Shown here: positions 43,646 to 55,400 of the stretch, piece after piece
Numbering within the stretch: the first letter of the stretch is position 1
Layout of the letters: each line of letters starts with the position of its first letter
Assembly: GCA_018334675.1 (NCBI GenBank)
Contig: JAGXLL010000002.1
Span: 29,205-93,204 of the forward strand
Direction: 5' to 3'
Length of the DNA: 64,000 bases
Origin: Bacteroidales bacterium
Lineage (GTDB): Bacteria; Bacteroidota; Bacteroidia; Bacteroidales; UBA12077
Notes under the pieces: model-generated
What the model was told of the DNA's origin: nothing
Database searches by the model: none
Seen by the model: the letters and a program-made list of their open reading frames with translations, nothing else
Position numbers and translations under genes: made by a program

Positions 43646-45163
43646 ATGCAGATTATTAATTCATTGGTTAATTGGCTTAATATCAAGCGGATGTATCAGA
43701 TCGAGCTGTTCAAAAAACATCCGGTAGATGTTCAGCAGGAGCAGCTCTTCAAGATCGTGGGCAGGGCAGCTAACACGGAATGGGGGCAGAAATACGGATA
43801 CCACTCCGTGAACAGCGTACGCGATTTCCAGGAAAGAGTACCCATCAACCGTTATGAAGAACTCAAACCCTATGTCGACCGGTTGCTGAAGGGAGAAACC
43901 AATGTGCTCTGGCCCGGCAGCATTCGCTGGTTTGCCAAATCCTCCGGCACCACAAGCGACAAGAGCAAATTCATACCGGTGAGCAAGGAAGCACTGGAAA
44001 ACTGTCATTTCAGGGGCGGCAAAGATACCCTGGCCATCTATTTCTCCAATTATCCCGATTCAAAGCTATACTCGGGCAAGGGGCTTACCCTGGGCGGCAG
44101 TCAGCAGATCAACAAGATCAACAACAAATCTTTTTACGGGGATCTCTCAGCCATCCTGATCGACAACATGCCCTTCTGGACGTACTTTGTCAAGACTCCC
44201 CGCCAGGACATTGCCCTGATGGCCGAATGGGAAGAAAAACTCGAGAAGCTCAGCGAGGCCACCATCAAGGAAAATATCACCAACATCAACGGCGTACCCT
44301 CCTGGATGCTGGTGCTTTTGAAACACATCCTTAAGAAAACAGGCAAAGACAACATTCTGGAGGTATGGCCCAACCTGGAGCTTTTTGTGCATGGAGGGGT
44401 CAGCTTCGAGCCTTACAAAGACCATTTCAGAAAGATCATCCCTGCCGACAACATGCGTTATGTGGAAGCCTACAATGCTTCGGAAGGATTCTTCGCCATT
44501 CAGGATTCCCCTTACCGAAAAGATATGCTGCTGATGCTTGACTACGGGGTGTTCTATGAATTCATCCCTATGGACGAGCTGGGCAAAGACCATCCCCGCG
44601 CCCTGACACTCGGGGAAGTAGAGACCGGCACCAACTACGCCATCGTGATATCTACCAACGGAGGATTATGGCGTTATATGATCGGCGATACCATTCAATT
44701 CACCAGCACATTCCCCCATAAAATCAAGATATCAGGCCGAACCAAGCACTTCATCAATGCCTTTGGTGAGGAAGTGATCATCGATAACGCAAAAAATGCG
44801 TTAAAAAAAGCGTGTGACAAAACGGGCGCGATGATCAAAGAGTATACGGCTGCTCCGGTATATATGGGTACGCAATCCAAAGGCAAGCACGAATGGATCG
44901 TAGAATTTGAAAAGCAACCCAAAGATCTGGAGTATTTCAGGCATGTACTGGACAATGCCCTGCAATCGATCAATTCCGATTACGAGGCCAAACGCTATAA
45001 AAACATCACCCTTGATCCCCCGTTGGTGCATCAGGCCCAACCCGGGTTGTTTTATCAATGGATGAAGAAGCGCGGCAAGCTAGGCGGCCAGAACAAAGTG
45101 CCCCGCCTGTCCAACGACCGCAAATACATCGACGACCTGCTTGAAATGAACAGTCAAATGTAA
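43646..45163 (+). CDS. GH3-family (acyl acid-amido synthetase-like) protein
   Basis: AKSSGTTSDKSKFIP, YNASEGFF, GLWRYMIGD, GGQNKVPRL. Confidence 0.92.
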   Translation: MQIINSLVNWLNIKRMYQIELFKKHPVDVQQEQLFKIVGRAANTEWGQKYGYHSVNSVRDFQERVPINRYEELKPYVDRLLKGETNVLWPGSIRWFAKSSGTTSDKSKFIPVSKEALENCHFRGGKDTLAIYFSNYPDSKLYSGKGLTLGGSQQINKINNKSFYGDLSAILIDNMPFWTYFVKTPRQDIALMAEWEEKLEKLSEATIKENITNINGVPSWMLVLLKHILKKTGKDNILEVWPNLELFVHGGVSFEPYKDHFRKIIPADNMRYVEAYNASEGFFAIQDSPYRKDMLLMLDYGVFYEFIPMDELGKDHPRALTLGEVETGTNYAIVISTNGGLWRYMIGDTIQFTSTFPHKIKISGRTKHFINAFGEEVIIDNAKNALKKACDKTGAMIKEYTAAPVYMGTQSKGKHEWIVEFEKQPKDLEYFRHVLDNALQSINSDYEAKRYKNITLDPPLVHQAQPGLFYQWMKKRGKLGGQNKVPRLSNDRKYIDDLLEMNSQM

Positions 45164-45165
45164 AC

Positions 45166-45987
45166 ATGGCCATGGTGAGAACGGTCCTGCTTGGAACGAT
45201 CCTGCTGACGCTCTTCCCTCTGCGGGCAGAGCCTTTTGAACTGATCAAAAAAGTGCCCGTGCCGGCCAAACACTACTCGGTCGACATCATGGGCCACATC
45301 TACTGGTCGCAAGACGCTACCCTGATCCGTCTCGACCCCGCCACCGGTGAAAAAACCGAGTACACCAACACCTTTCTGGGTGACATACACTCCTGGGATG
45401 CCTCCAATCCATTTAAAATAGGGGTTTTTCACAAAGATTTCAATACCCTGGTCTTTCTCGATCAATCCCTCTCCACCATACGCTCTCCGGTCAACCTCGA
45501 TGAGCTTACCGCCAGCCAGGCTACTGCAACCTGCCTGTCCCAACAGGGAGGCTTCTGGTTGGTCAATGCCTCCACAGGCCAGATTCAACAGTATGATCCC
45601 GGGCTGAATCAAATCAACCAGTCAACTGCCATACCCGAACTTTCGACACGCCATCAAAGCAACCCGCTCATCAGAGCACACAACCGGCAGCTCTACTGCC
45701 TGATACCCCATTGCTGTGCCCTGGTTTTCGACCGTTTCGGCAACCTGCAACGACGCCGCCCTTTAAAAAATGTTGATAACATTCAAATCCTCAACCAAAA
45801 TATTTATTATTTTTACAAAGGTGATTTATACAGGCTTGATAAGGACCTGCAAAGCACCGGCAAAATACACCTGCCCACAGGTAAAGGCAAGTGGGATTTT
45901 GCAAGAATGGGACCCCGGAACAGGCTCTACCTGTTGAAGAAAGATCAATTGTACATTTACAAAATCGATAAAACACCGGTTACGTGA
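45166..45987 (+). CDS. Hypothetical secreted protein (beta-propeller-like)
   Basis: Signal peptide; D..GHIY, DASNPFKI..F, LVFLD; operon-like spacing. Confidence 0.7.
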   Translation: MAMVRTVLLGTILLTLFPLRAEPFELIKKVPVPAKHYSVDIMGHIYWSQDATLIRLDPATGEKTEYTNTFLGDIHSWDASNPFKIGVFHKDFNTLVFLDQSLSTIRSPVNLDELTASQATATCLSQQGGFWLVNASTGQIQQYDPGLNQINQSTAIPELSTRHQSNPLIRAHNRQLYCLIPHCCALVFDRFGNLQRRRPLKNVDNIQILNQNIYYFYKGDLYRLDKDLQSTGKIHLPTGKGKWDFARMGPRNRLYLLKKDQLYIYKIDKTPVT

Positions 45988-46226
45988 AAAGGAAGCAAAA
46001 AAAGAAAGAAGAAAACCTCAAACGCATCCATCGCAAATCCATCCTGTTTAACAAACGTGAGCTCAACGCCATCAACCATTATTGCCGCAAATACAAGATA
46101 AAAAACCGGTCAAAATTCATGCGTGAAACCATCATCAGTGCCATCCTCCAAAGATTCGACGAAGATCATCCCTCTCTTTTTGAGGATCAACCCAACTTAT
46201 TCGCCCCCTCTAAAAGAAATTATTAA
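45984..46226 (+). CDS. Small basic conserved hypothetical protein
   Basis: YCRKYKIKNRSKFMRETII...DHPSLF; 4-nt overlap with the upstream gene. Confidence 0.7.
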   Translation: MKRKQKKKEENLKRIHRKSILFNKRELNAINHYCRKYKIKNRSKFMRETIISAILQRFDEDHPSLFEDQPNLFAPSKRNY

Positions 46227-46238
46227 AAACACGATTAT

Positions 46239-46853
46239 ATGCACATAGCCATAGCAGGAAACATAGGCTCCGGGAAAACAACACTCGCCGGTCTTCTGGC
46301 AAAACACTACGGTTGGGAAGCCCATTATGAAAAGGTGGATGACAATCCCTATCTCAATGACTTCTACGAAGACATGCAACGGTGGTCGTTCAATCTTCAG
46401 ATATATTTCCTGAATTCCCGTTTCAGTCAGATCCTGAAGATCAAAAATTTAGATAAAACGGTTATACAAGACCGCACCATATACGAAGACGCACATATCT
46501 TTGCTCCCAACCTGCACTCCATGGGGCTGATGTCAACCCGGGACTTCGAGAATTATTTCTCCCTGTTCAGCCTGATGAGCTCCCTGATCGAGCCGCCCGA
46601 TCTGATCCTCTATCTCAAGGGCAGTGTGCCCACCCTGGTCAAACAGATCCAGAAAAGGGGACGGGAATACGAAAACAATATCCGCCTCGACTACCTGAAG
46701 AAATTGAATGAACGTTACGAAACATGGGTAGACAGCTACAACCTGGGCAAACTGCTTGTGATCAACGTGGACAACCTGAATTTTTCCGAAAACAAGGAAG
46801 ACCTGAGAAAGGTGATCGACCGGATTGATGCCGAAATCCACGGTTTATTCTAA
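46239..46853 (+). CDS. Deoxynucleoside kinase
   Basis: GNIGSGKTT P-loop, LQIYFL, QDRTIYED, RGREYE. Confidence 0.93.
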   Translation: MHIAIAGNIGSGKTTLAGLLAKHYGWEAHYEKVDDNPYLNDFYEDMQRWSFNLQIYFLNSRFSQILKIKNLDKTVIQDRTIYEDAHIFAPNLHSMGLMSTRDFENYFSLFSLMSSLIEPPDLILYLKGSVPTLVKQIQKRGREYENNIRLDYLKKLNERYETWVDSYNLGKLLVINVDNLNFSENKEDLRKVIDRIDAEIHGLF

Positions 46854-46875
46854 AGATTATTTTTTTCGGTTGGGT

Positions 46876-46904
46876 TACAACTAAATCACGGTTTGATTCG
46901 TCTA
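46876..46904 (+). promoter_or_regulatory. Putative ECF-sigma promoter (TACAACT-N16-CGTCTA) for the lipoprotein-sigma-anti-sigma operon
   Basis: AAC/CGT ECF-type boxes; the motif recurs before three more genes of the cluster. Confidence 0.6.
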
Positions 46905-46923
46905 ACAGATAGATTACAATCAA

Positions 46924-47709
46924 ATGATAATCATGAAACGATATCTAATGCTGACTTTCATTGCATTTATCCTGGCAGGGTTATCTTCCTGCACCGAGGA
47001 TGAATTCATTGAACCGGCAACCGTAGATCTAAAGATCACGATGACCCATACCGAGCCCTTCGACGATCCCGGAGGTGGCCCACCCTTTGACGATGAGCTG
47101 GAGTTTTCCACGGGAAAACTGCAGCTGAGCTCCCTGGAGTTTGAGGGGGAAAGGGAAAACAATGACAGCCACTACTTCTCCAGGGACTTCTCCGAAGTAT
47201 TGGTGGCCGATCTGAGCGAAGGGGAGCTGAATCAGTCGGTGAGCTTCGACATACCCCAGGGCAGCTATAACCACATCCGGCTGAAACTGCATACTTGTGC
47301 GACCGACAGTTGTGCCGGCTTGGTTTTCCGGGGCAGATGGGAACAGGACGATGACGATGACGACGAGGATGATGGCACCAGCAAAAAACGGGGTCTTATC
47401 CCCGGTGATCCCGAAGAACTGCCCATTGAGCTTAATTTCTTTCAGCAGGCCGAGACCATCCCCCTGACACTTAAAACCCAGGACAACCAACAACAAATAC
47501 TGATCGAACAGGACAACTGGGATACCCTGGAGATCACCATCGACCTGGCCCATATGTTCCGTTATATCAACCCGGCTAAATTGGGGCAGGCCCAGGTTCA
47601 TGGCATCGGTAATCAAAGAAGAATCATTATTTCAGCCAATCATAACACGGAAATATATTACAGCCTGATGGAAAGGGTGGAAAGATCCATCCAGGCTGTC
47701 ATCAAATAA
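46924..47709 (+). CDS. Hypothetical surface lipoprotein (family A, copy 1)
   Basis: Lipobox LSSC followed by acidic TEDE; paralog of 50888-51610. Confidence 0.8.
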   Translation: MIIMKRYLMLTFIAFILAGLSSCTEDEFIEPATVDLKITMTHTEPFDDPGGGPPFDDELEFSTGKLQLSSLEFEGERENNDSHYFSRDFSEVLVADLSEGELNQSVSFDIPQGSYNHIRLKLHTCATDSCAGLVFRGRWEQDDDDDDEDDGTSKKRGLIPGDPEELPIELNFFQQAETIPLTLKTQDNQQQILIEQDNWDTLEITIDLAHMFRYINPAKLGQAQVHGIGNQRRIIISANHNTEIYYSLMERVERSIQAVIK

Positions 47710-47720
47710 ACCAATCATTC

Positions 47721-48266
47721 ATGGGGGAACGGGAATTGTACAGCGACGCTGAACTGGTTCAGGGTTGTAAAAACAATAATCGCAAATACCAGGAATTGCT
47801 GTACCGCAAATATGCCAAAAAGATGTACGGCATTTGCCTGAGTTACGCCACAGACCGGTCGATGGCCCAGGATATGCTGCAGGATGGTTTCATCAAGGTC
47901 TTCAAAAAGATCGATACCTTCCGCGAGCAGGGATCCCTGGAAGGATGGGTGCGGCGGATCATCACGAACACAGCCCTGGATTACATGAGACAGAAATCAA
48001 GAACCTTCGACTTCATCGATCACAATCAGGAGGTGGAGGAGCAGCAACTGGACAACAGCATCATGGAAAAAATCAACAGCGACGGACTTTTCAGGATCAT
48101 TGAGCAACTGCCCCAGGGCGCACGAATGGTATTCAACCTTTATGCAGTGGAAGGATATACCCATAAAGAGATCGCAGATAAACTGGAGATCACCGAGGGT
48201 ACTTCCAAATCGCAGTTTAAGCGGGCACGGGCTCTGTTAAAAAATTTGATCCAAGATCTGATATAA
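47721..48266 (+). CDS. ECF RNA polymerase sigma factor
   Basis: AQDMLQDGFIKVF, GSLEGWVRRI, EGYTHKEIA..L.ITEGTSKSQ. Confidence 0.95.
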   Translation: MGERELYSDAELVQGCKNNNRKYQELLYRKYAKKMYGICLSYATDRSMAQDMLQDGFIKVFKKIDTFREQGSLEGWVRRIITNTALDYMRQKSRTFDFIDHNQEVEEQQLDNSIMEKINSDGLFRIIEQLPQGARMVFNLYAVEGYTHKEIADKLEITEGTSKSQFKRARALLKNLIQDLI

Positions 48267-48270
48267 TACA

Positions 48271-49725
48271 ATGGACAACCAGGCATTTCATAGATGGTAT
48301 AAGCGGCTGATCGAAGATCCGCCCCAGGCTCCTCCCGAGATCGTTTGGGAGCACATCAGCCTGGAGCTGGACCGGGAGTTCTATGACTGGTACCGCACGA
48401 CATTGGAAGAGGGTGCTCCTGTGCCGCCTGCAGCCGTCTGGGATAACATCGAGGACAACCTGGACAGCGGGCTGCATCAATGGTACCAAACCTCCATCGA
48501 AGAACCCACCGAGGAACCGCCGCAGGAAGTTTGGAGCAACATACAGGACCAACTGGACATCGACGACACCTGGGTCGGTATCTCCCGGGAATTGGACCGC
48601 AAATGGAAAAAACGCACCCGGCAGCTTGTATATGCCCTGGCAGCAGCTGTGCTGTTGCTCTTTGCGCTTCAGATCTTCCTGCCCACCAGCGAGCATTCAC
48701 CCTTCAGAGAATCCACCACCCCGGTGGCACAGGAAGAAAAGCCGCAGCCGGATAAGAAACAGGAAGAACAAGCCACGCAAGAACCCGGAGAGAAACAGCA
48801 GGAACCCATCCCGCAAACTCCTTCAGCTGACCAGAGGGAGAGGAAAGAAAGGCTGGCCATGGGCAAAGATCAATCCGCCACAGCCGATAGCCGGGAATCG
48901 GAAAAGGAAGAAAAAACACAGGAAAGAAAAGAAACGGACCGGAGCGAAGGATTAGAAAGGCTGGCCGACCGCTCATCTATGACATTGGCAAAAGCCGATC
49001 CCACACAAATACAACTGAATGTTCAAACGAATGAACAGTTGGCTTCCATGCCGGAAACCGGTATCTCGGTATCTCAAACACGGGAGGATAAGGAACAGCC
49101 CGGCCAGGTGCGATACTATGCTGGAATAAGCGGGGAAGTAGGCAACTCCTGGTTGCTGAGCAACAAGACCATATACAGCATCCGGAAATCGCCTTACAGC
49201 TCGGCCTCACCCGAGGTGGGCAAATCCTATGGCATCATGGGTGGCGCCTCGCTGAACGATCATTTTGATGTGCAGGCTGAGGCCCTGTTCACCAGCGAGA
49301 CAGGCCAGAAATATCGTGAATACACCAACGGACAGGTTCTCCACAACCAGATCCTTCTGAATTATACCTCCCTGAAGATCACCGGACGCTACAAGATCTT
49401 TGGCTCCAGCTTCCAGCTTCCCGTTTCCCATCACCTGGTGTTGGGCACCTATGGCAGCTATCTGAAAAATGCCCAACAACAAACCGACGGGCAAACCAAA
49501 AACATCAAGGGCGCTTATAAAAACTACAACCTGGGAGTCGTTGTCGGTTACGAACTGGACACCCATATCGCCCCGAATTACAGCCTTTCGGCCGGCCTGC
49601 GCTTCAACCCGGGCTTTATAAATATCTACGAGGGTACTTCCATGCTCCCTGCACAGTTTAACAAGACCTACAGCTCCTCGGTGAACATCAACATCGCCCT
49701 GAAATACAACCTCTCCTCACAATAA
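48271..49725 (+). CDS. Putative dual-membrane-spanning anti-sigma factor (N-terminal repeats, TM, disordered linker, OM beta-barrel)
   Basis: Starts 4 nt after the ECF gene; 3x 31-aa PP..VW.nI...LD repeats, one TM, E/Q/K/P-rich linker, C-terminal barrel ending in NIALKYNL. Confidence 0.75.
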   Translation: MDNQAFHRWYKRLIEDPPQAPPEIVWEHISLELDREFYDWYRTTLEEGAPVPPAAVWDNIEDNLDSGLHQWYQTSIEEPTEEPPQEVWSNIQDQLDIDDTWVGISRELDRKWKKRTRQLVYALAAAVLLLFALQIFLPTSEHSPFRESTTPVAQEEKPQPDKKQEEQATQEPGEKQQEPIPQTPSADQRERKERLAMGKDQSATADSRESEKEEKTQERKETDRSEGLERLADRSSMTLAKADPTQIQLNVQTNEQLASMPETGISVSQTREDKEQPGQVRYYAGISGEVGNSWLLSNKTIYSIRKSPYSSASPEVGKSYGIMGGASLNDHFDVQAEALFTSETGQKYREYTNGQVLHNQILLNYTSLKITGRYKIFGSSFQLPVSHHLVLGTYGSYLKNAQQQTDGQTKNIKGAYKNYNLGVVVGYELDTHIAPNYSLSAGLRFNPGFINIYEGTSMLPAQFNKTYSSSVNINIALKYNLSSQ

Positions 49726-49746
49726 AAAAAATTTTCTCTCCCCCCT

Positions 49747-49776
49747 TTCCCACCTTCTGGTCCCTGGTTTCGTCTT
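49747..49776 (+). promoter_or_regulatory. Putative ECF promoter (TTCCCACC-N16-CGTCTT)
   Basis: Same boxes and spacing as at 51667-51696. Confidence 0.6.
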
Positions 49777-49806
49777 AGAAGCAAACAAACCAAAAAACCG
49801 ATTATC

Positions 49807-50736
49807 ATGAAAACCAAAATCACCTTAATCATTGCTCTTCTCGTATCTCTTGGCGCCTTCATGGGATGCGAAGAAGACGATGCAGGGCAAACCGGAACGC
49901 TGGCCCTTTCCCTTACCGATGCCCCCATCGACGACACCAGTGTAACCGGTGTATGGGTCACGATCACCGGCATTCAATACCATATGCAGGACAGTGCCTG
50001 GAAAACCTTTGAAGGCTTCCAGGGTCCGCAAAAATTCAACCTGCTGGCCCTGACCGACAGCATCAGCGAGGTGCTGGGTGCGGCTCAGATCGAAGCCGGA
50101 CAATACAACCAGCTGCGTTTCATGCTCGACGCCCCTGAAAAAGGCCAGGGTCCGCCAACCAGCCCCGGCTGCTACATAGAATTTGATGGGGGAGAAACCC
50201 AACCCATGTTTGTCCCCAGCGGCGGACAAACGGGTTACAAAGCCGTGGGCGCCTTCCGTGTTCCTTCCAATGGTACCGTTGAAGTGACGGCCGATTTCGA
50301 TGCCCGCAAATCCGTTCGCGAGACAGGCGGCATGCGGGAACATTACATCCTTCAGCCTACCATACGCCTTGTTGTGAATAACCAGGCCGGCAGCATAGCG
50401 GGTGAAGTAACCCCCTTACCCTCCGACGGCAGCAACATCGCCGTCTATGCCTATGAAGACAATGCTTATACTTCTGATGAAGCAGCCGACCCGGCCGAAG
50501 GAGAAACCCGCTTCCCCAATGCCGTAACTTCGGATGTGGTAGGGGATAATGACTGCAACCACTCACAGAAATGTTACCACCTGTACTATCTCGCTCCTAT
50601 AACTTACGACCTGGTGGTGGTAAGAACCCTGGACGGGGAATTCCAGGAAGTACTGGGTATCTCTGAAGATGTTGCGGTAGAAAGCAAAAAAAATACCGGT
50701 CACCCCATTGACCTGAATGATCTTTCCTCCCTGTAA
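49807..50736 (+). CDS. DUF4382-domain lipoprotein (family B, copy 1)
   Basis: Lipobox FMGC-EEDD, LSLTDAP, FNLL.L, G.YNQLRF, VPSG.QTG, DFDARKSV, YILQP. Confidence 0.85.
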   Translation: MKTKITLIIALLVSLGAFMGCEEDDAGQTGTLALSLTDAPIDDTSVTGVWVTITGIQYHMQDSAWKTFEGFQGPQKFNLLALTDSISEVLGAAQIEAGQYNQLRFMLDAPEKGQGPPTSPGCYIEFDGGETQPMFVPSGGQTGYKAVGAFRVPSNGTVEVTADFDARKSVRETGGMREHYILQPTIRLVVNNQAGSIAGEVTPLPSDGSNIAVYAYEDNAYTSDEAADPAEGETRFPNAVTSDVVGDNDCNHSQKCYHLYYLAPITYDLVVVRTLDGEFQEVLGISEDVAVESKKNTGHPIDLNDLSSL

Positions 50737-50751
50737 GAACCCGTATCCTCG

Positions 50752-50787
50752 AAAAGCCCCGGTGCTTAATGGTGCCGGGGTTTTTTT
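50752..50787 (+). terminator. Intrinsic terminator
   Basis: GCCCCGGTGC-TTAATG-GTGCCGGGG followed by a T run. Confidence 0.75.
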
Positions 50788-50826
50788 ATATATCCTTTCC
50801 TATCCCCTGAAAAACAGGGAAAAAAC

Positions 50827-50854
50827 TACAACTTATTGCCTCAAACCCCGTATA
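50827..50854 (+). promoter_or_regulatory. Putative ECF promoter (TACAACT-N15-CGTATA)
   Basis: Shares TACAACT and CGT.TA with 46876-46904. Confidence 0.5.
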
Positions 50855-50887
50855 ATATTCTAACAATGAATTCAACAGCATCATGCC

Positions 50888-51610
50888 ATGTCTCGTTTGA
50901 TCATACTATCCCTGTTGCTGGCGGTGATTACTTACTTCAACCATGCCGGCACCGATAAAACGCCCCTCAGGGAACCTTCCCTGATCAAACTCAGCATGCA
51001 CCTCACCCAAACCCGGGCCAACCCAGCCGCATCATCTCAGGATCTCTCCCGCATCACATTTCAAAACGGCATCTTATCCCTTTCTTCAGTCGAATTTTTA
51101 GGATCGCCCCACAACACCACCGATTTTCATTTTACCTCCTCCCTCCACAGCCAATACCAATTGCAGCCTGAAAAAAGCCCGCTTCCCTTATTGGAATTTG
51201 ACGTACCTGCCGGCAGGTACCGATCGGCGAAGATCATCCTCCATGCCAACAGCCGGGACAGCCTTCCTGCCATGACAGTCCATGCCCGGTGGCAAAAAAA
51301 GGACGGGCCCAAACCGATCGACATCCATATCCGGCTGTTCGATCTGCCCCGGATCCTTTCCCTGGAAGTCAAACCGGAAGGAAAGGAGAGGTCCCTGATG
51401 TTTCCCCGGCAGGGTTTCTCCAATCTACAGATCCGGATCGACCCCATGCAACTCTTCGACCCAGCTGTGATGGATCAGCTGCAGGAGGCAAAAATGCAGG
51501 ATACGCCCACCGGCCGTAAGGTGATCCTTTCACGACATCACAACCCCCACATACACGACCGCCTGACAGAAAATATGCACGAATCCATCCGGGCGGTCCT
51601 GCAGCGGTGA
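50888..51610 (+). CDS. Hypothetical exported protein (family A, copy 2; no lipobox)
   Basis: LSLSSVEF.G, FDVPAGRY, VILSRHHNPHI...SIRAVL align with 46924-47709. Confidence 0.7.
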   Translation: MSRLIILSLLLAVITYFNHAGTDKTPLREPSLIKLSMHLTQTRANPAASSQDLSRITFQNGILSLSSVEFLGSPHNTTDFHFTSSLHSQYQLQPEKSPLPLLEFDVPAGRYRSAKIILHANSRDSLPAMTVHARWQKKDGPKPIDIHIRLFDLPRILSLEVKPEGKERSLMFPRQGFSNLQIRIDPMQLFDPAVMDQLQEAKMQDTPTGRKVILSRHHNPHIHDRLTENMHESIRAVLQR

Positions 51611-51666
51611 ATCCATGCGGATTGAGCTCCCCGGCACCAGATTTTTCGGCAAAACTTTCCTTTTCA

Positions 51667-51696
51667 TTCCCACCCTTTTTGTGAAACCTACGTCTT
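51667..51696 (+). promoter_or_regulatory. Putative ECF promoter (TTCCCACC-N16-CGTCTT)
   Basis: Boxes conserved with 49747-49776 while the spacer is diverged. Confidence 0.6.
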
Positions 51697-51732
51697 TATT
51701 ACAAATACTTCAAACCCCAAAATCATTGGACC

Positions 51733-52629
51733 ATGAAAACACGAATTTTTATTTTAATCGTACTGATGATTCCCTTCGCCCTTTTTACCGGATGCGAGGA
51801 GGAAAAAAGCGAAACAGGCACCCTGGATCTTTCCCTGACCGATGCCCCCATTGATCAACAAGATGTGACAGGAGTATATATCACCATCAACGGCCTGGAA
51901 TATCACAAGCAGAATAACGACTGGGCTACCTTCGAAGAATACGGGGAAGCCAAAAAGTTCAACCTGTTGGAATTGACCGATGGCATGAGCGAAATGCTGG
52001 GATCCTTCGAGATGGAAGCCGGACAGTATAACCAGTTGCGTTTTATGCTGGAGGCTCCGGTAAGAGGTGAATCTACCCCATCCAATGCAGGTTGTTACCT
52101 TGAATTTGAAGGTGGAGAAACCGAGCCTCTTTTCGTACCCAGCGCAGGCAACACAGGCTACAAGGCGGTAGGTGCCTTTACCGTTCCCTCCAATGGAACT
52201 GTTGAGCTGACCGCAGATTTCGATGCCCGCAAGTCTGTCGTTGAAACAGGAACAGCCGGGATGTATATTCTTCAGCCCACCATCCGTCTGATCGTCAACA
52301 ATGAGGCTGGCAGCATCGCCGGCAGCATCAGCAATTTCCCCACCGATGGCAGCAATATCATTGTCTATGCCTACGAAGATGGAGATTATTCCGATACGGA
52401 AGCAGCCGATCCCGAGGCCGAAGAAAGCCGGTTCCCCAATGCCGTCACCAGCGATATAGCAGATGAGCAAAACAGTTATAAACTGCATTACCTGGCCCCG
52501 ATGAACTATGACCTGGTCGTTGTAAGGTCTCTGGACGGGCAGTTCCAGGAAGTATTACAGGTAGTAGAAGATGTTGCGGTGGAAAGCAAAGAGACCACAC
52601 CGCAGCCCATCGATCTTTCCACCCAATAG
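51733..52629 (+). CDS. DUF4382-domain lipoprotein (family B, copy 2)
   Basis: Lipobox FTGC-EEEK; closely collinear with 49807-50736. Confidence 0.85.
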   Translation: MKTRIFILIVLMIPFALFTGCEEEKSETGTLDLSLTDAPIDQQDVTGVYITINGLEYHKQNNDWATFEEYGEAKKFNLLELTDGMSEMLGSFEMEAGQYNQLRFMLEAPVRGESTPSNAGCYLEFEGGETEPLFVPSAGNTGYKAVGAFTVPSNGTVELTADFDARKSVVETGTAGMYILQPTIRLIVNNEAGSIAGSISNFPTDGSNIIVYAYEDGDYSDTEAADPEAEESRFPNAVTSDIADEQNSYKLHYLAPMNYDLVVVRSLDGQFQEVLQVVEDVAVESKETTPQPIDLSTQ

Positions 52630-52649
52630 TCCCCGTAACCTCGATGAAT

Positions 52650-52694
52650 GAAAGGCTGACTCCCGCTCCGAAGCGGGGGAAAGCCTTTTTTTTT
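52650..52694 (+). terminator. Intrinsic terminator
   Basis: AAAGGCT..TCCCGCT-CCGA-AGCGGGG..AGCCTTT followed by a T run. Confidence 0.75.
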
Positions 52695-52833
52695 ATGGAA
52701 CCTGTCCGCTCGAGGCAGGTAGATGAAGAAGGTGAAAAAATTTTATGCAGCTGTTGGAAAATTGACAAAAAGCTTTTACTTTTGCTCCTCGTTCACCGAT
52801 AACGGATCTTTCAAATACCACGGGATAACATAT

Positions 52834-52907
52834 TCCTCAGTAGCTCAGTTGGTTAGAGCACCTGACTGTTAATCAGGGGGTCGTAGGTTCAAGTCCTACC
52901 TGGGGAG
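52834..52907 (+). tRNA. tRNA-Asn(GTT)
   Basis: Acceptor TCCTCAG/CTGGGGA, D-arm AGCTCAGTTGGTTAGAGC, anticodon arm CCTGA-CTGTTAA-TCAGG, GGTTCAAGTCC; CCA not encoded; TACTTTTG promoter at 52777. Confidence 0.96.
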
Positions 52908-52913
52908 CATCAC

Positions 52914-52954
52914 AAAGAAGGAGTTGCAACAGCCGTGTGCAGCTCCTTTTTTTT
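52914..52954 (+). terminator. Intrinsic terminator after tRNA-Asn
   Basis: AAGGAGTTGCA...TGCAGCTCCTT followed by a T run. Confidence 0.8.
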
Positions 52955-53175
52955 GTAATTTTTTCCTACCTCCCTTTTTGTCCAATTTTTACAATACAAC
53001 CATCCGAATTATTCCTATTTTTATATAAATATTTAATATTCAACAAGATGATGTCTGTTAGTGGAATGGATCATTATTTATATCTTTCACAGCATGACGG
53101 GCTAATATAAATCCTCTTTCCATGTCCAACCCCTATCTACCTGTATGAATACCATTTTTAACCATATCATCACTC

Positions 53176-53670
53176 ATGTTTTTCAAAACCCTTGCTGTCA
53201 GTGCCGTTCTCATGCTGGGATGGGCACTGACGGGTCTGCAAGCACAGGAAGCCTTACCTGCCAGTGGCGGAGAGGCTTCAGGCAACGGTGGCTCGGTGAG
53301 CTTTACTGTTGGACAGGTTGCATGCACCTTTCAAACGGGCAACGAATGCTCCGTATCCCAAGGTGTACAGCAACCTTATGAAATATACACTGTGGTAGAA
53401 ACGACAATACCCAAAGGCCTTGACCTTTTCTACACTTGCTATCCCAATCCGGTGACCGACAATCTGATACTCAAAACAGAAACGGATCACCCCAGCCATT
53501 TTATCCGGTTTCAGCTCCACAACATGAACGGAAAACTGCTGAAAAACGGAAAAATCAAAGGCAGCACAACCTCTGTTCACATGGCTGATCTTTCTTCCGG
53601 GACCTATCTGCTGAAGGTGATCGATGGAAATACAGAGATCATCACGTTCAAAATCATCAAAAATCCGTAA
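53176..53670 (+). CDS. Small T9SS type A sorting domain-containing protein
   Basis: Signal peptide, ASGG..G.GGSVSFTVGQ, QGVQQPYEI, YPNP...GTYLLKV...FKIIK. Confidence 0.88.
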   Translation: MFFKTLAVSAVLMLGWALTGLQAQEALPASGGEASGNGGSVSFTVGQVACTFQTGNECSVSQGVQQPYEIYTVVETTIPKGLDLFYTCYPNPVTDNLILKTETDHPSHFIRFQLHNMNGKLLKNGKIKGSTTSVHMADLSSGTYLLKVIDGNTEIITFKIIKNP

Positions 53671-53672
53671 TC

Positions 53673-55400
53673 ATGAAAAAAATCTACATCCTCTTCCTGT
53701 CCTTTCTTTTCACTGCAACCGCCTGGAGCCAGTCACCTGAAAAAATGAGCTATCAGGCTGTCATCAGGGATTCAGATGAAAACCTGGCTACCAATCAAAC
53801 GGTAGGCATCCAGATCAGTATTTTACAAGGCTCTGCCAGCGGCACCGCCGTATATGTCGAAACACAACAGCCTGCTACCAATGACAACGGACTGGTAACG
53901 CTGGAAATCGGAACCGGCACAGTCGTCTCAGGAGATTTCGCATCCATTGACTGGGCTGACGGACCCTATTTCCTGAAAACCGAAACCGATCCTGCAGGGG
54001 GAAGCAGCTACAGCACCTCCGGAACCTGCGAGCTGGTGAGCGTGCCCTTTGCCCTGTATGCTCAAAATGCCGGAAATGTTTTTTCCGGCGAACACAATGA
54101 CCTGACTTTCAATGGAACGGGACAATCTGTGTTCATCGGTAAGGGAGCAGGGACCCATGACGACCTGTCGGACAACCAGAACGTGTTTACCGGCGATTCC
54201 ACAGGGTTCCAAAACACCGACGGACATAAGAATACTGCCCTCGGCTTCGCAGCATTTTTCTCCAATACAGGAGGGTATGGCAATACCGCCACCGGGTATA
54301 GATCACTATACTACAACAGCAACGGCAACTACAACATTGCCAGCGGTTACAACTCCATGTACAGCAATACTTCTGGCAATTACAACATCGCCATTGGTGG
54401 CGAGGCATTATTCTACAATACCGTCCGAAGTGGTCTGGTAGCCGTGGGACACGAAGCTTTGCATAAAAATGCGCAAACCATCTCCGATGCCAATGACGGC
54501 GTCAACAATACTGCGGTAGGCTACCGGGCGCTGCACAATAACACGGTAGGATTCAGCAATACAGGCATCGGTAACCAGTCATTAATCAATAACACGGAAG
54601 GTGGAAGCAACACAGCTGTGGGAAATAAAACCTTATTCTCCAATACTACCGGCAGCATCAACACGGCCGTGGGAAATGATGCCATGTTGTACAATACCTC
54701 TGGATATTCCAACGCGGCCATGGGGCACAATGCTTTATTTGCCAATACCACCGGTACTCATAACACAGCGATCGGTTGCCGGACTCTAAAGAACAATACT
54801 ACCGGAAGCAGAAACACCGCAGTGGGATACTATGCCGGCCCAACCAGCGGCAACGACAACCTGTTCAACACCGGTGCTTTTGGATATAATGCCACAGTAG
54901 CCACCAACAACACCATCCGCATTGGGGACAACAATATTACCTCGATATTCGGAGCCGTGGGATGGGGAAGCCCATCCGACGGCCGCTTCAAAACCAATGT
55001 CACGCCAGATGTACCCGGACTGGAGTTCATAACGAAACTGAAGCCCGTGACCTTCAACTGGGATCTGGATGCACTAAACGAATTCCAGGGTAAGGAGGAG
55101 GGGAATAAAAAAGATCCCAGAATAAAAAAGGCCCGGCGGAAGAAAGAACAAAAGGACTACACCGGCTTTGTGGCCCAGGAAGTGGAAAAAGCTGCAGAGG
55201 CCTGCGGGTATGATTTCAGCGCGGTGAGCAAACCGCCCAACGACAAATCCACTTATCACCTCACTTATTCCGAGTTTGTAGTGCCTCTGGTGAAAGCGGT
55301 TCAGGAACAACAAAAAGAAATAGAAAACCTGGAGAATAAAATGGCGGAACAGGATGAGCGCATAGAATCCCTAATCCGTGAAATAGAAAAGCTTCAATGA
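53673..55400 (+). CDS. Fibre/adhesin-like protein with beta-roll repeats and C-terminal peptidase S74 intramolecular chaperone
   Basis: PEKMSYQAVIR...SVPFALYA N-domain, about 14-aa NTAVG..AL..NT.G repeats, SDGRFKTNV, GFVAQEVE, LVKAVQEQQ coiled coil. Confidence 0.85.
   Translation: MKKIYILFLSFLFTATAWSQSPEKMSYQAVIRDSDENLATNQTVGIQISILQGSASGTAVYVETQQPATNDNGLVTLEIGTGTVVSGDFASIDWADGPYFLKTETDPAGGSSYSTSGTCELVSVPFALYAQNAGNVFSGEHNDLTFNGTGQSVFIGKGAGTHDDLSDNQNVFTGDSTGFQNTDGHKNTALGFAAFFSNTGGYGNTATGYRSLYYNSNGNYNIASGYNSMYSNTSGNYNIAIGGEALFYNTVRSGLVAVGHEALHKNAQTISDANDGVNNTAVGYRALHNNTVGFSNTGIGNQSLINNTEGGSNTAVGNKTLFSNTTGSINTAVGNDAMLYNTSGYSNAAMGHNALFANTTGTHNTAIGCRTLKNNTTGSRNTAVGYYAGPTSGNDNLFNTGAFGYNATVATNNTIRIGDNNITSIFGAVGWGSPSDGRFKTNVTPDVPGLEFITKLKPVTFNWDLDALNEFQGKEEGNKKDPRIKKARRKKEQKDYTGFVAQEVEKAAEACGYDFSAVSKPPNDKSTYHLTYSEFVVPLVKAVQEQQKEIENLENKMAEQDERIESLIREIEKLQ

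Follow-up and report, generated by a model that had tools for sequence, protein, structure and literature searches.

An ECF Sigma/Anti-Sigma Locus of the Das/Dma Kind Predicted to Control Acidic DUF4382-Superfamily Lipoproteins in an Uncultured Bacteroidales Bacterium

A 64,000-nucleotide (nt) stretch of DNA from a Bacteroidales bacterium (GenBank assembly GCA_018334675.1, contig JAGXLL010000002.1, positions 29,205 to 93,204 of the forward strand; hereafter the window) carries six co-oriented open reading frames (ORFs) on the + strand, spanning 46924-52629, which encode in order a lipoprotein of an unnamed family, here family A (A1), an extracytoplasmic function (ECF) sigma factor, its predicted membrane anti-sigma factor, a lipoprotein of the DUF4382 family (B1), a family A paralog (A2), and a second DUF4382 lipoprotein (B2). 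The interpretation that we favor, and regard as probable though well short of certain, is that this locus is a paralog of the Das/Dma kind, in which an autoregulated sigma/dual-membrane anti-sigma operon switches on acidic lipoproteins of the DUF4382 superfamily. An earlier sequence-only reading of the window had described an ECF sigma gene and a membrane partner set inside two interleaved paralog pairs, the whole forming a self-contained regulon. The arrangement was borne out ORF by ORF, and both paralog pairs are significant (A1 versus A2: 24% identity, E = 9e-23; B1 versus B2: 63% identity, E = 3e-144); the regulon itself, as set out below, extends beyond the window.

Results

Conservation of the Family A-Sigma-Anti-Sigma Core

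A pattern scan covering one genome per species yielded 13 loci, all from metagenome-assembled genomes (MAGs) of uncultured Bacteroidota labeled Bacteroidales, Bacteroidia, or Cytophagales. The A gene is directly followed by an ECF sigma gene and a gene for a barrel anti-sigma in 12 of the 12 loci with downstream sequence, including loci whose A is as little as 22% identical (L011, the 13th, stops within A and is uncounted for downstream order). The full six-gene order is present again in L007, occurs without A2 in L006, and is cut short in L008, which ends inside B1. DUF4382 genes lie near the module in seven of the 10 informative loci (L006, L007, L008, L012, L015, L017, and L018), and none was found within about 4 kb in L009, L014, and L016. 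Several of the 13 loci are close kin, and the number of independent lineages is perhaps six or seven. A, sigma, and anti-sigma make up the conserved core, to which DUF4382 genes are frequent but variable additions; the co-localization of ECF sigma, barrel anti-sigma, and DUF4382 genes anticipated by the sequence-only reading does occur, but the invariant partner is family A, not DUF4382.

In a second, even sample of 400 other genomes of the phylum, for which flanks of 6-7 kb around family A relatives were inspected, a profile-level relative of A is present in 17 genomes (about 10 of 180 genera). One of these 17 loci, L043, holds the module in the same order as the window (A, sigma, barrel anti-sigma, DUF4382); two have an unrelated ECF sigma and an approximately 255-residue protein upstream, two others have an ECF gene nearby, and 12 are without an ECF gene within about 6-7 kb. 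These 12 imply that the A-sigma link belongs to one clade and not to the whole superfamily. The broader proposition that family A is always tied to an ECF sigma was rejected for the wider superfamily, with 12 of 17 loci lacking an ECF gene and four lying near unrelated sigmas.

Some loci show local variation of their own. In genus g39, the equivalent genomic position beside a distant A-like lipoprotein differs in ECF content between L041/L044 and L042/L045, two genomes having the unrelated ECF sigma and the approximately 255-residue protein (weak TPR matches) and two being without both. The sigma gene of L016 (L016:8814-9323) has an in-frame stop near its 5' end, for which decay to a pseudogene, an error in sequencing, or a start codon further downstream could account. 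In L006 (L006:12088-12550), where A2 is missing, B1 and B2 are separated by a 464-bp gap in which the near-repeat aaggcagNtcttagataaaaaa occurs twice.

A Specific Promoter Motif Upstream of the Superfamily Genes

A site 5' of A with the consensus T(T/C)(A/C)CAAC(C/T), 15 unconserved bases, and (T/A/C)C(G/A)TC(T/A) is present in 12 of the 12 loci with upstream sequence, the -10 box reading CGT in eight loci and CAT in four (L012-L015). A weight matrix of the type TTmCAACy-N15-TCGTCT, trained on 10 sites of which none came from the genome of the window, was used to score all 6,171,562 positions of this 3.09-Mb genome. Only eight positions reach 18 bits. The first (23.2 bits) precedes B3, an unlinked gene on contig C56 (G000:C56; L003:1378-2271) for a DUF4382 lipoprotein that also has a CarboxypepD_reg domain, and the second (23.1 bits) precedes A3 (G000:C99:108588-109325; L019:1589-2326), which lies 15 kb past the end of the window and belongs to family A (hhalign 95.8%, E = 8e-9). 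Neither B3 nor A3 played any part in motif discovery. Rank 3 (20.8 bits) is the predicted ECF promoter of A1 (46875-46904, + strand; TTACAACT-N15-TCGTCTA), which ends 20 nt 5' of the A1 start codon; rank 4 (19.0 bits) is an internal predicted ECF promoter 5' of B1 (49747-49776, + strand; TTCCCACC-N15-TCGTCTT); and rank 8 (18.1 bits) stands 5' of B2 (51667-51696, + strand; TTCCCACC-N15-ACGTCTT). No A or B gene follows the sites at ranks 5-7. A weak candidate 5' of A2 (50826-50854, + strand; CTACAACT-N14-CCGTATA) scores 12.1 bits and ranks 468th.

The 20 regions upstream in the 17 phylum-sample loci served as a negative control: two in L043, the locus with the module, score 23.3 and 22.2 bits (0 of 200 shuffles), and the other 18 do not exceed 10.4 bits. 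Among the pattern-scan loci, the B1 site is kept 5' of B1 in L006, L007, and L008 with unconserved spacers, the B2 site is kept 5' of B2 in L007, and a sequence similar to the A2 site, CCCAAC-N16-CGTAT, precedes the A2 ortholog in L007. By sequence analysis, then, a specific and conserved promoter fronts six genes of one superfamily, the site of A2 being weak. Both the recurrence of the gene order in other genomes and the highly non-random common promoter place the arrangement beyond chance. The ECF-type promoter in front of A1 implies that the A1-sigma-anti-sigma-B1 operon would be autoregulated, and the position of the two best genome-wide matches, before a gene on another contig and a gene outside the window, implies that the regulon is not self-contained. 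The proposal that both the A and the B genes are targets of the sigma holds for the common promoter at A1, B1, and B2, but is weakened by the low rank of the A2 site, and the sigma that serves these sites has itself to be deduced.

A Second Dma-Type Pair in the Same Genome

Of the 14 ECF-like sigmas encoded in the genome, the one nearest to the window sigma (45% identity) belongs to a second Dma-type pair, on contig C32 (L058:2928-5870, G000:C32). The C32 anti-sigma (445 residues) has one PPxxVWxxI unit, a transmembrane (TM) segment, and a barrel that matches Pfam OMP_b-brl_2 at 40.1 bits, and the pair is followed by an SLT lytic transglycosylase gene. The paralog was recognized through its sigma and Pfam, a barrel hidden Markov model having matched in the genome only the window anti-sigma. 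The presence of this pair makes the window pair a paralogous Dma system. In a tree of 26 ECF sigmas, from which two near-duplicates (L013 and L018), the sigma-less locus L011, and the three weakest paralogs from the same genome were omitted, a branch (88/82; 90% of bootstrap trees) sets the 12 A-linked sigmas apart. The C32 sigma is sister to them, and the ECFs beside distant A-like genes fall elsewhere.

Since the C32 pair has a similar site upstream (CGCAAC-N16-TCGTCTT), cross-recognition between the two sigmas is possible, and the promoters described above might be served mainly by the C32 sigma, or by both sigmas, the locus then belonging as a target to a wider Dma network and not forming a regulon of the adjacent sigma alone. 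In favor of this arrangement, the C32 sigma gene is itself preceded by the same -10 box and by a -35 box with a CAAC core, and the two sigmas are closely related. However, the -35 flanks differ (TTmCAACy versus ACGCAACG), the matrix gives the C32 site only 9.8 bits and the 1664th rank, and the motif co-occurs across genomes with the A-linked sigma and is missing where that sigma is missing. ECF sigmas, moreover, usually autoregulate through the promoter of their own operon. Control by C32 consequently appears improbable to us, and from adjacency, co-occurrence across genomes, and the differing -35 flanks we infer that the promoters would be served by the A-linked sigma.

Predicted Dual-Membrane Architecture of the Anti-Sigma

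The window sigma (181 residues; 47721-48266, + strand) has both Sigma70_r2 (1.6e-18) and Sigma70_r4_2 (5e-15) domains. The anti-sigma (484 residues; 48271-49725, + strand) begins with three repeats (residues 6-96; nt 48286-48558) and, in an AlphaFold model built on 11 orthologs, continues with a predicted TM helix (residues 118-136; nt 48622-48678), which is an uncharged hydrophobic segment inside a longer helix (97-136), a disordered tether rich in E, S, Q, T, P, and K (residues 137-277; predicted local distance difference test [pLDDT] scores of about 26-33 over 136-277), and a C-terminal β-barrel of eight long strands (residues 281-480; nt 49111-49710; pLDDT about 90). The barrel strands are 16-23 residues long, and the N-terminal helices are modeled at low confidence. 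The anti-sigma is thereby predicted to extend from the cytoplasm as far as the outer membrane. In the published Dma work, the family is defined by a sigma-binding part at the N terminus, a TM helix, a disordered tether, and a barrel of eight strands at the C terminus, and Dma proteins are described as adjoining ECF21 sigmas and as occurring in Bacteroidota only. We assign the anti-sigma to the Dma type because of its architecture and context, its likeness to Dma1 and Reo being one of description and not of sequence alignment; the kinship with Dma/Reo proteins surmised by the sequence-only reading agrees with the modeled architecture. The sigma shows the ECF21 traits of sigma-2 and sigma-4 domains, a Dma-type neighbor, and related loci all from Bacteroidota MAGs, as judged from domains and context and not from the group models of the ECF classification.

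Each N-terminal repeat corresponds to a putative sigma-binding unit, (F/Y)xxWYxxxIExPxxxPPxxVWxxIxxxLD, whose PPxxVWxxIxxxL(D) portion is also common to the C32 paralog. The number of units varies: three tandem copies are present in the window and in L007, about four in L006, two in L012-L015, and one in L009, L016, and L017/L018, the copy adjoining the TM helix being kept in every ortholog examined. Such variation might change how many sigma molecules one anti-sigma holds.

The predicted barrel also bears on the role of family A, which might, instead of or besides being an effector, be part of the signaling device itself, the lipoprotein acting in the outer membrane as a co-sensor or feedback inhibitor with the barrel or the tether. 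A is the first gene of the operon, it is contiguous with the sigma and anti-sigma genes in all 12 readable loci and in L043, compared with DUF4382 genes near the module in seven of 10, and the long barrel strands could give a binding surface beyond the membrane. A place in the device would explain why A is never parted from the sigma and anti-sigma genes while DUF4382 genes come and go. Against it, described Dma operons carry adjacent small proteins that behave as regulon members (NigD2 for Dma1; DUF4943 and DUF4858 for Dma2), and the other family A copies, A2 and A3, are unlinked or have promoters of their own, a pattern more in keeping with effectors. A complex prediction for the barrel (residues 275-484) with mature A1 returned a score of 0.00, which counts neither way. 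We consider a signaling role for family A unlikely, although it would be compatible with the Das/Dma-kind interpretation.

Remote Kinship of Family A with DUF4382

B1 (309 residues; 49807-50736, + strand) and B2 (298 residues; 51733-52629, + strand) are DUF4382 proteins, as the sequence-only reading had recognized (E = 2.7e-31 and 7.5e-33, respectively); the Pfam DUF4382 (PF14321) scores are 109.1 bits for B1, 114.1 for B2, and 104.6 for B3, with a gathering cut-off of 25. Family A, represented in the window by A1 (261 residues; 46924-47709, + strand) and A2 (240 residues; 50888-51610, + strand), had been taken for a separate, unnamed family. This is correct to the extent that A1 and A2 reach no Pfam or NCBIfam threshold, and that family A stays below the 25-bit DUF4382 cut-off (A1 14.5 bits, E = 0.043; A3 19.5 bits, E = 0.0012; A2 no match), but profile-profile comparison of family A (26 rows) with DUF4382 (11 rows) reveals remote kinship (97.3%, E = 2.6e-11) over 102 columns, part of which are signal peptide. 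The aligned columns take in a common strand motif around FDIPxGxY / ELxAGxY. These comparisons support placing family A within the DUF4382 superfamily, as a divergent branch. Both have the N-terminal half of the domain in common, and family A has a helix-containing extension in place of the C-terminal CarboxypepD_reg-like domain of DUF4382; the A1 model (pLDDT 86.7; predicted template modeling score 0.79) is a β-sandwich with a C-terminal helix. Family A is sizeable: a profile search of 1.84 billion representatives gave 909 clusters at E ≤ 1e-3 (501 at E ≤ 1e-10), almost all of them full-length proteins of about 225-260 residues. Residues 143-152 of A1 (nt 47350-47380) form a poly-Asp/Glu insertion in a loop, which is of highly variable length across family A orthologs, being absent from some and longer than 20 residues in others. 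In the literature searched, DUF4382 is mentioned once, for an N-glycosylated Haloferax lipobox protein.

Searches of PDB sequences with B1 and with the family A profile gave no matches at E ≤ 1. The best PDB fold match of the A1 model is MbnP (7L6G; probability 0.98-0.99), a copper-binding protein, which raises the possibility that the lipoproteins handle metals and that the system is a metal-stress response. The weak Pfam MbnP matches among relatives (E 0.004-0.06), an MbnP cluster among the atlas look-alikes (score 0.92, rank 24), and the long acidic runs in the lipoproteins could all be counted in favor of metal handling. However, the Foldseek TM-scores are 0.3-0.43 with no PDB match at E ≤ 0.001, A1 has no match to MbnP (PF20243) and its relatives reach 13.7-17.4 bits against a 27-bit cut-off, the Cys residues of A1 other than that of the lipobox are unconserved in the family alignment, and an MbnH-like partner was not seen among the neighboring genes examined. 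We therefore treat the likeness of A1 to MbnP as a distant fold resemblance only, and a metal-stress role as very improbable.

Residues after the lipobox Cys had been noted as acidic in three of the four lipoprotein-like products of the window and read as a surface-export signature. Both points are upheld: A1 (lipobox LSSC), B1, and B2 continue with TEDE, EEDD, and EEEK, and A2 has a signal-like N terminus but no Cys. Five lipoproteins, A1, A3, and B1-B3, have lipobox Cys contexts drawn from CTEDE, CEEDD, CEEEK, CNEEN, and CEDDG, and each of them has at least two acidic residues at positions +2 to +5 after the Cys, the export signal as defined here, from which A2 departs. In the export signal published for Bacteroidota lipoproteins, the Cys is succeeded by a polar or basic residue and then by two or three D/E residues, and lipoproteins enriched in Bacteroides thetaiotaomicron vesicles are described as bearing the signal and as acidic, with a mean pI of 4.86. 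The mature forms of the five lipoproteins have pI values of 4.05-4.33 and net charges of -27 to -67 (A1, 4.33 and -29; B1, 4.22 and -27; B2, 4.05 and -36), the extreme being A3 (-67), which has a long poly-Asp C-terminal tail; A2 is basic (pI 9.64, net charge +5). Because both the export-signal residues and the low pI match the published pattern, it is a reasonable prediction that A1, B1, B2, B3, and A3 are surface exposed and packed into vesicles.

NigD domains, which characterize lipoproteins under Dma control in Bacteroides, are absent: neither NigD_N (PF12667) nor NigD_C (PF17415) was detected on A1, A2, B1, or B2 at E ≤ 0.1, nor was either found in the whole genome (94.8% complete), for which a B. 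thetaiotaomicron control was positive. The absence is ordinary, as NigD_C was found in only 10 of 401 sampled genomes of the phylum, and no replacement is therefore claimed. The candidate explanation that the A and B proteins replace NigD in lineages without it was dropped on the same count, and is also contradicted by one genome (G243) that has NigD_C and the module together.

Transcription Units and Genomic Surroundings

The intergenic gaps are 11 nt between A1 and the sigma gene and 4 nt between the sigma and anti-sigma genes. Predicted intrinsic terminators follow B1 (50751-50787, + strand; a GC-rich hairpin and then a U run; -25.2 kcal/mol, z = -4.56) and B2 (52650-52694, + strand; -31.2 kcal/mol, z = -4.14), and for each of them none of 200 shuffles folds equally well. 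Both were found by direct folding against shuffles, a simple sigma-70/terminator scan having missed them and given nothing above chance. No terminator-like structure was found in the A2-B2 spacer (folding z = +0.99). The presence of terminators after B1 and B2, and of none between A2 and B2, divides the locus into two units, A1-sigma-anti-sigma-B1 and A2-B2, and A2 is probably co-transcribed with B2. The limits that the sequence-only reading had set for the locus fall on functional-looking elements, position 46876 on the -35 box of the predicted operon promoter and position 52694 on the terminator after B2.

The region 5' of the module (43646-46853) encodes a GH3-family protein, two small unnamed ORFs, and a deoxynucleoside kinase, and since the upstream gene order is kept in L006, L007, and L009, the module occupies a stable chromosomal site in this lineage. 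The sole Rfam match in a scan of 46000-53600 is a tRNA-Asn downstream of the locus. Just 3' of the locus (53176-55400), one gene encodes a 164-residue protein bearing a type IX secretion sorting tail (Por_Secre_tail, 2e-11). Another encodes a 575-residue protein in which many NTAxG-like repeats accompany a Peptidase_S74 intramolecular chaperone domain (1.1e-9), a type known from tail-fiber and endosialidase-like proteins.

Discussion

In the mechanism that we propose, a disturbance at the outer membrane or cell surface would lead, by analogy with Dma1, to proteolysis of the anti-sigma. The freed sigma would amplify its own operon, A1-sigma-anti-sigma-B1, and induce the five strongly acidic lipoproteins with export signal together with one basic secreted paralog, A2; the induced proteins may then change the make-up of the cell surface and outer-membrane vesicles. 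Here we infer the sigma usage, the trigger, the surface exposure, and the role of the lipoproteins.

Several observations weigh against this interpretation. The second Dma-type pair has a related sigma and an upstream site that resembles the window promoters, and the A2 site is weak. No motif was found 5' of the DUF4382 genes near the module in L012 and L015, nor within 110 nt of B2 in L006, and the sites of L017/L018 carry the deviant -35 box TTCCGTC. The 12 distant A-like lipoproteins of the phylum sample stand without an ECF gene in their surveyed flanks. The barrel scores 26.4 bits (E = 8.5e-6) for Pfam OMP_b-brl_2, just under the cut-off of 27, and no catalytic or ligand-binding signature was seen among the invariant alignment columns.

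A more ambitious proposal, which we regard as quite unlikely, is that the A-sigma-Dma trio is a self-tuning sensor at the cell surface. The family A lipoprotein, exported to that surface, would then, besides being the first product, serve the anti-sigma barrel as its partner or feedback ligand in the outer membrane; the one to about four N-terminal sigma-binding repeats would set how many sigma molecules are held and hence how sharply the switch fires; and the DUF4382-superfamily proteins would form an inducible, highly acidic coat on the surface and vesicles that protects against cationic or membrane-damaging agents. If this were true, DUF4382 would gain a function and the Dma model a lipoprotein co-sensor.

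The Das/Dma-kind interpretation is of interest because dual-membrane anti-sigmas entered the literature only in 2024 and little is known about their signals and outputs. The locus would add a third Das/Dma lineage, which is phylogenetically distinct and has a fixed lipoprotein partner, and the sharply defined promoter motif predicts a compact regulon from sequence alone. It would also give a first regulatory context to DUF4382 and to its unnamed sister family (at least 500 clusters at 50% identity), and the orthologs offer a natural series of anti-sigmas with one to about four putative sigma-binding units. Although the source organism is uncultured, the predictions are testable in tractable Bacteroidota. 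In the literature searched, no published combination of ECF sigma, Dma protein, and DUF4382 was found; supplementary tables, which possibly list conserved neighbors, were outside that search.

The predicted circuit has parallels in several characterized systems. The envelope-stress system RpoE/RseA/RseB of Escherichia coli likewise has an ECF operon that regulates itself, and it passes on distress at the outer membrane through proteolysis of a membrane anti-sigma; RseA, however, ends in the periplasm, whereas the anti-sigma described here bears a predicted outer-membrane barrel, and the output genes differ.

The closest parallels lie within the Das/Dma group, for which the background given in the sequence-only reading on Dma, Reo, and NigD agrees with the published descriptions. 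Das1/Dma1 of B. thetaiotaomicron is, like the pair in the window, an operonic ECF sigma followed by an anti-sigma of the four-part build that is predicted for the window protein, and its regulon (NigD1, NigD2, and BT_1287) is similarly small and composed of lipoproteins of unknown function, one of them encoded beside the sigma/anti-sigma pair (PMC10927553). In contrast, the effectors here would be of the DUF4382 superfamily and not NigD, a lipoprotein gene heads the operon, and the anti-sigma N terminus is triplicated. Das2/Dma2 of B. thetaiotaomicron is, as proposed for the window pair, a second, lineage-restricted Dma paralog, and it acts most strongly on its own operon and on neighboring genes whose function is unknown (PMC13088901). 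The neighbors of Das2/Dma2 are DUF4858, DUF4943, and an enoyl-ACP-reductase-like protein, and polysaccharide-utilization loci are also affected (PMC13088901); nothing comparable was seen at the locus described here. EcfO/Reo of Bacteroides fragilis and M0N98_03761/03760 of Phocaeicola vulgatus also pair a barrel anti-sigma with an ECF sigma (PMC10927553; PMC9308784). They are described as Dma1 orthologs with oxidative-stress or toxin-protection phenotypes, the P. vulgatus pair being induced by envelope-damaging toxins with a rise in lipoproteins that are NigD orthologs (PMC10927553; PMC9308784). Relative to the Das/Dma systems, the locus in the window thus departs in its effector family, in the lipoprotein gene at the head of its operon, in the lineage of its sigma, and in the one to about four N-terminal repeats of its anti-sigma.

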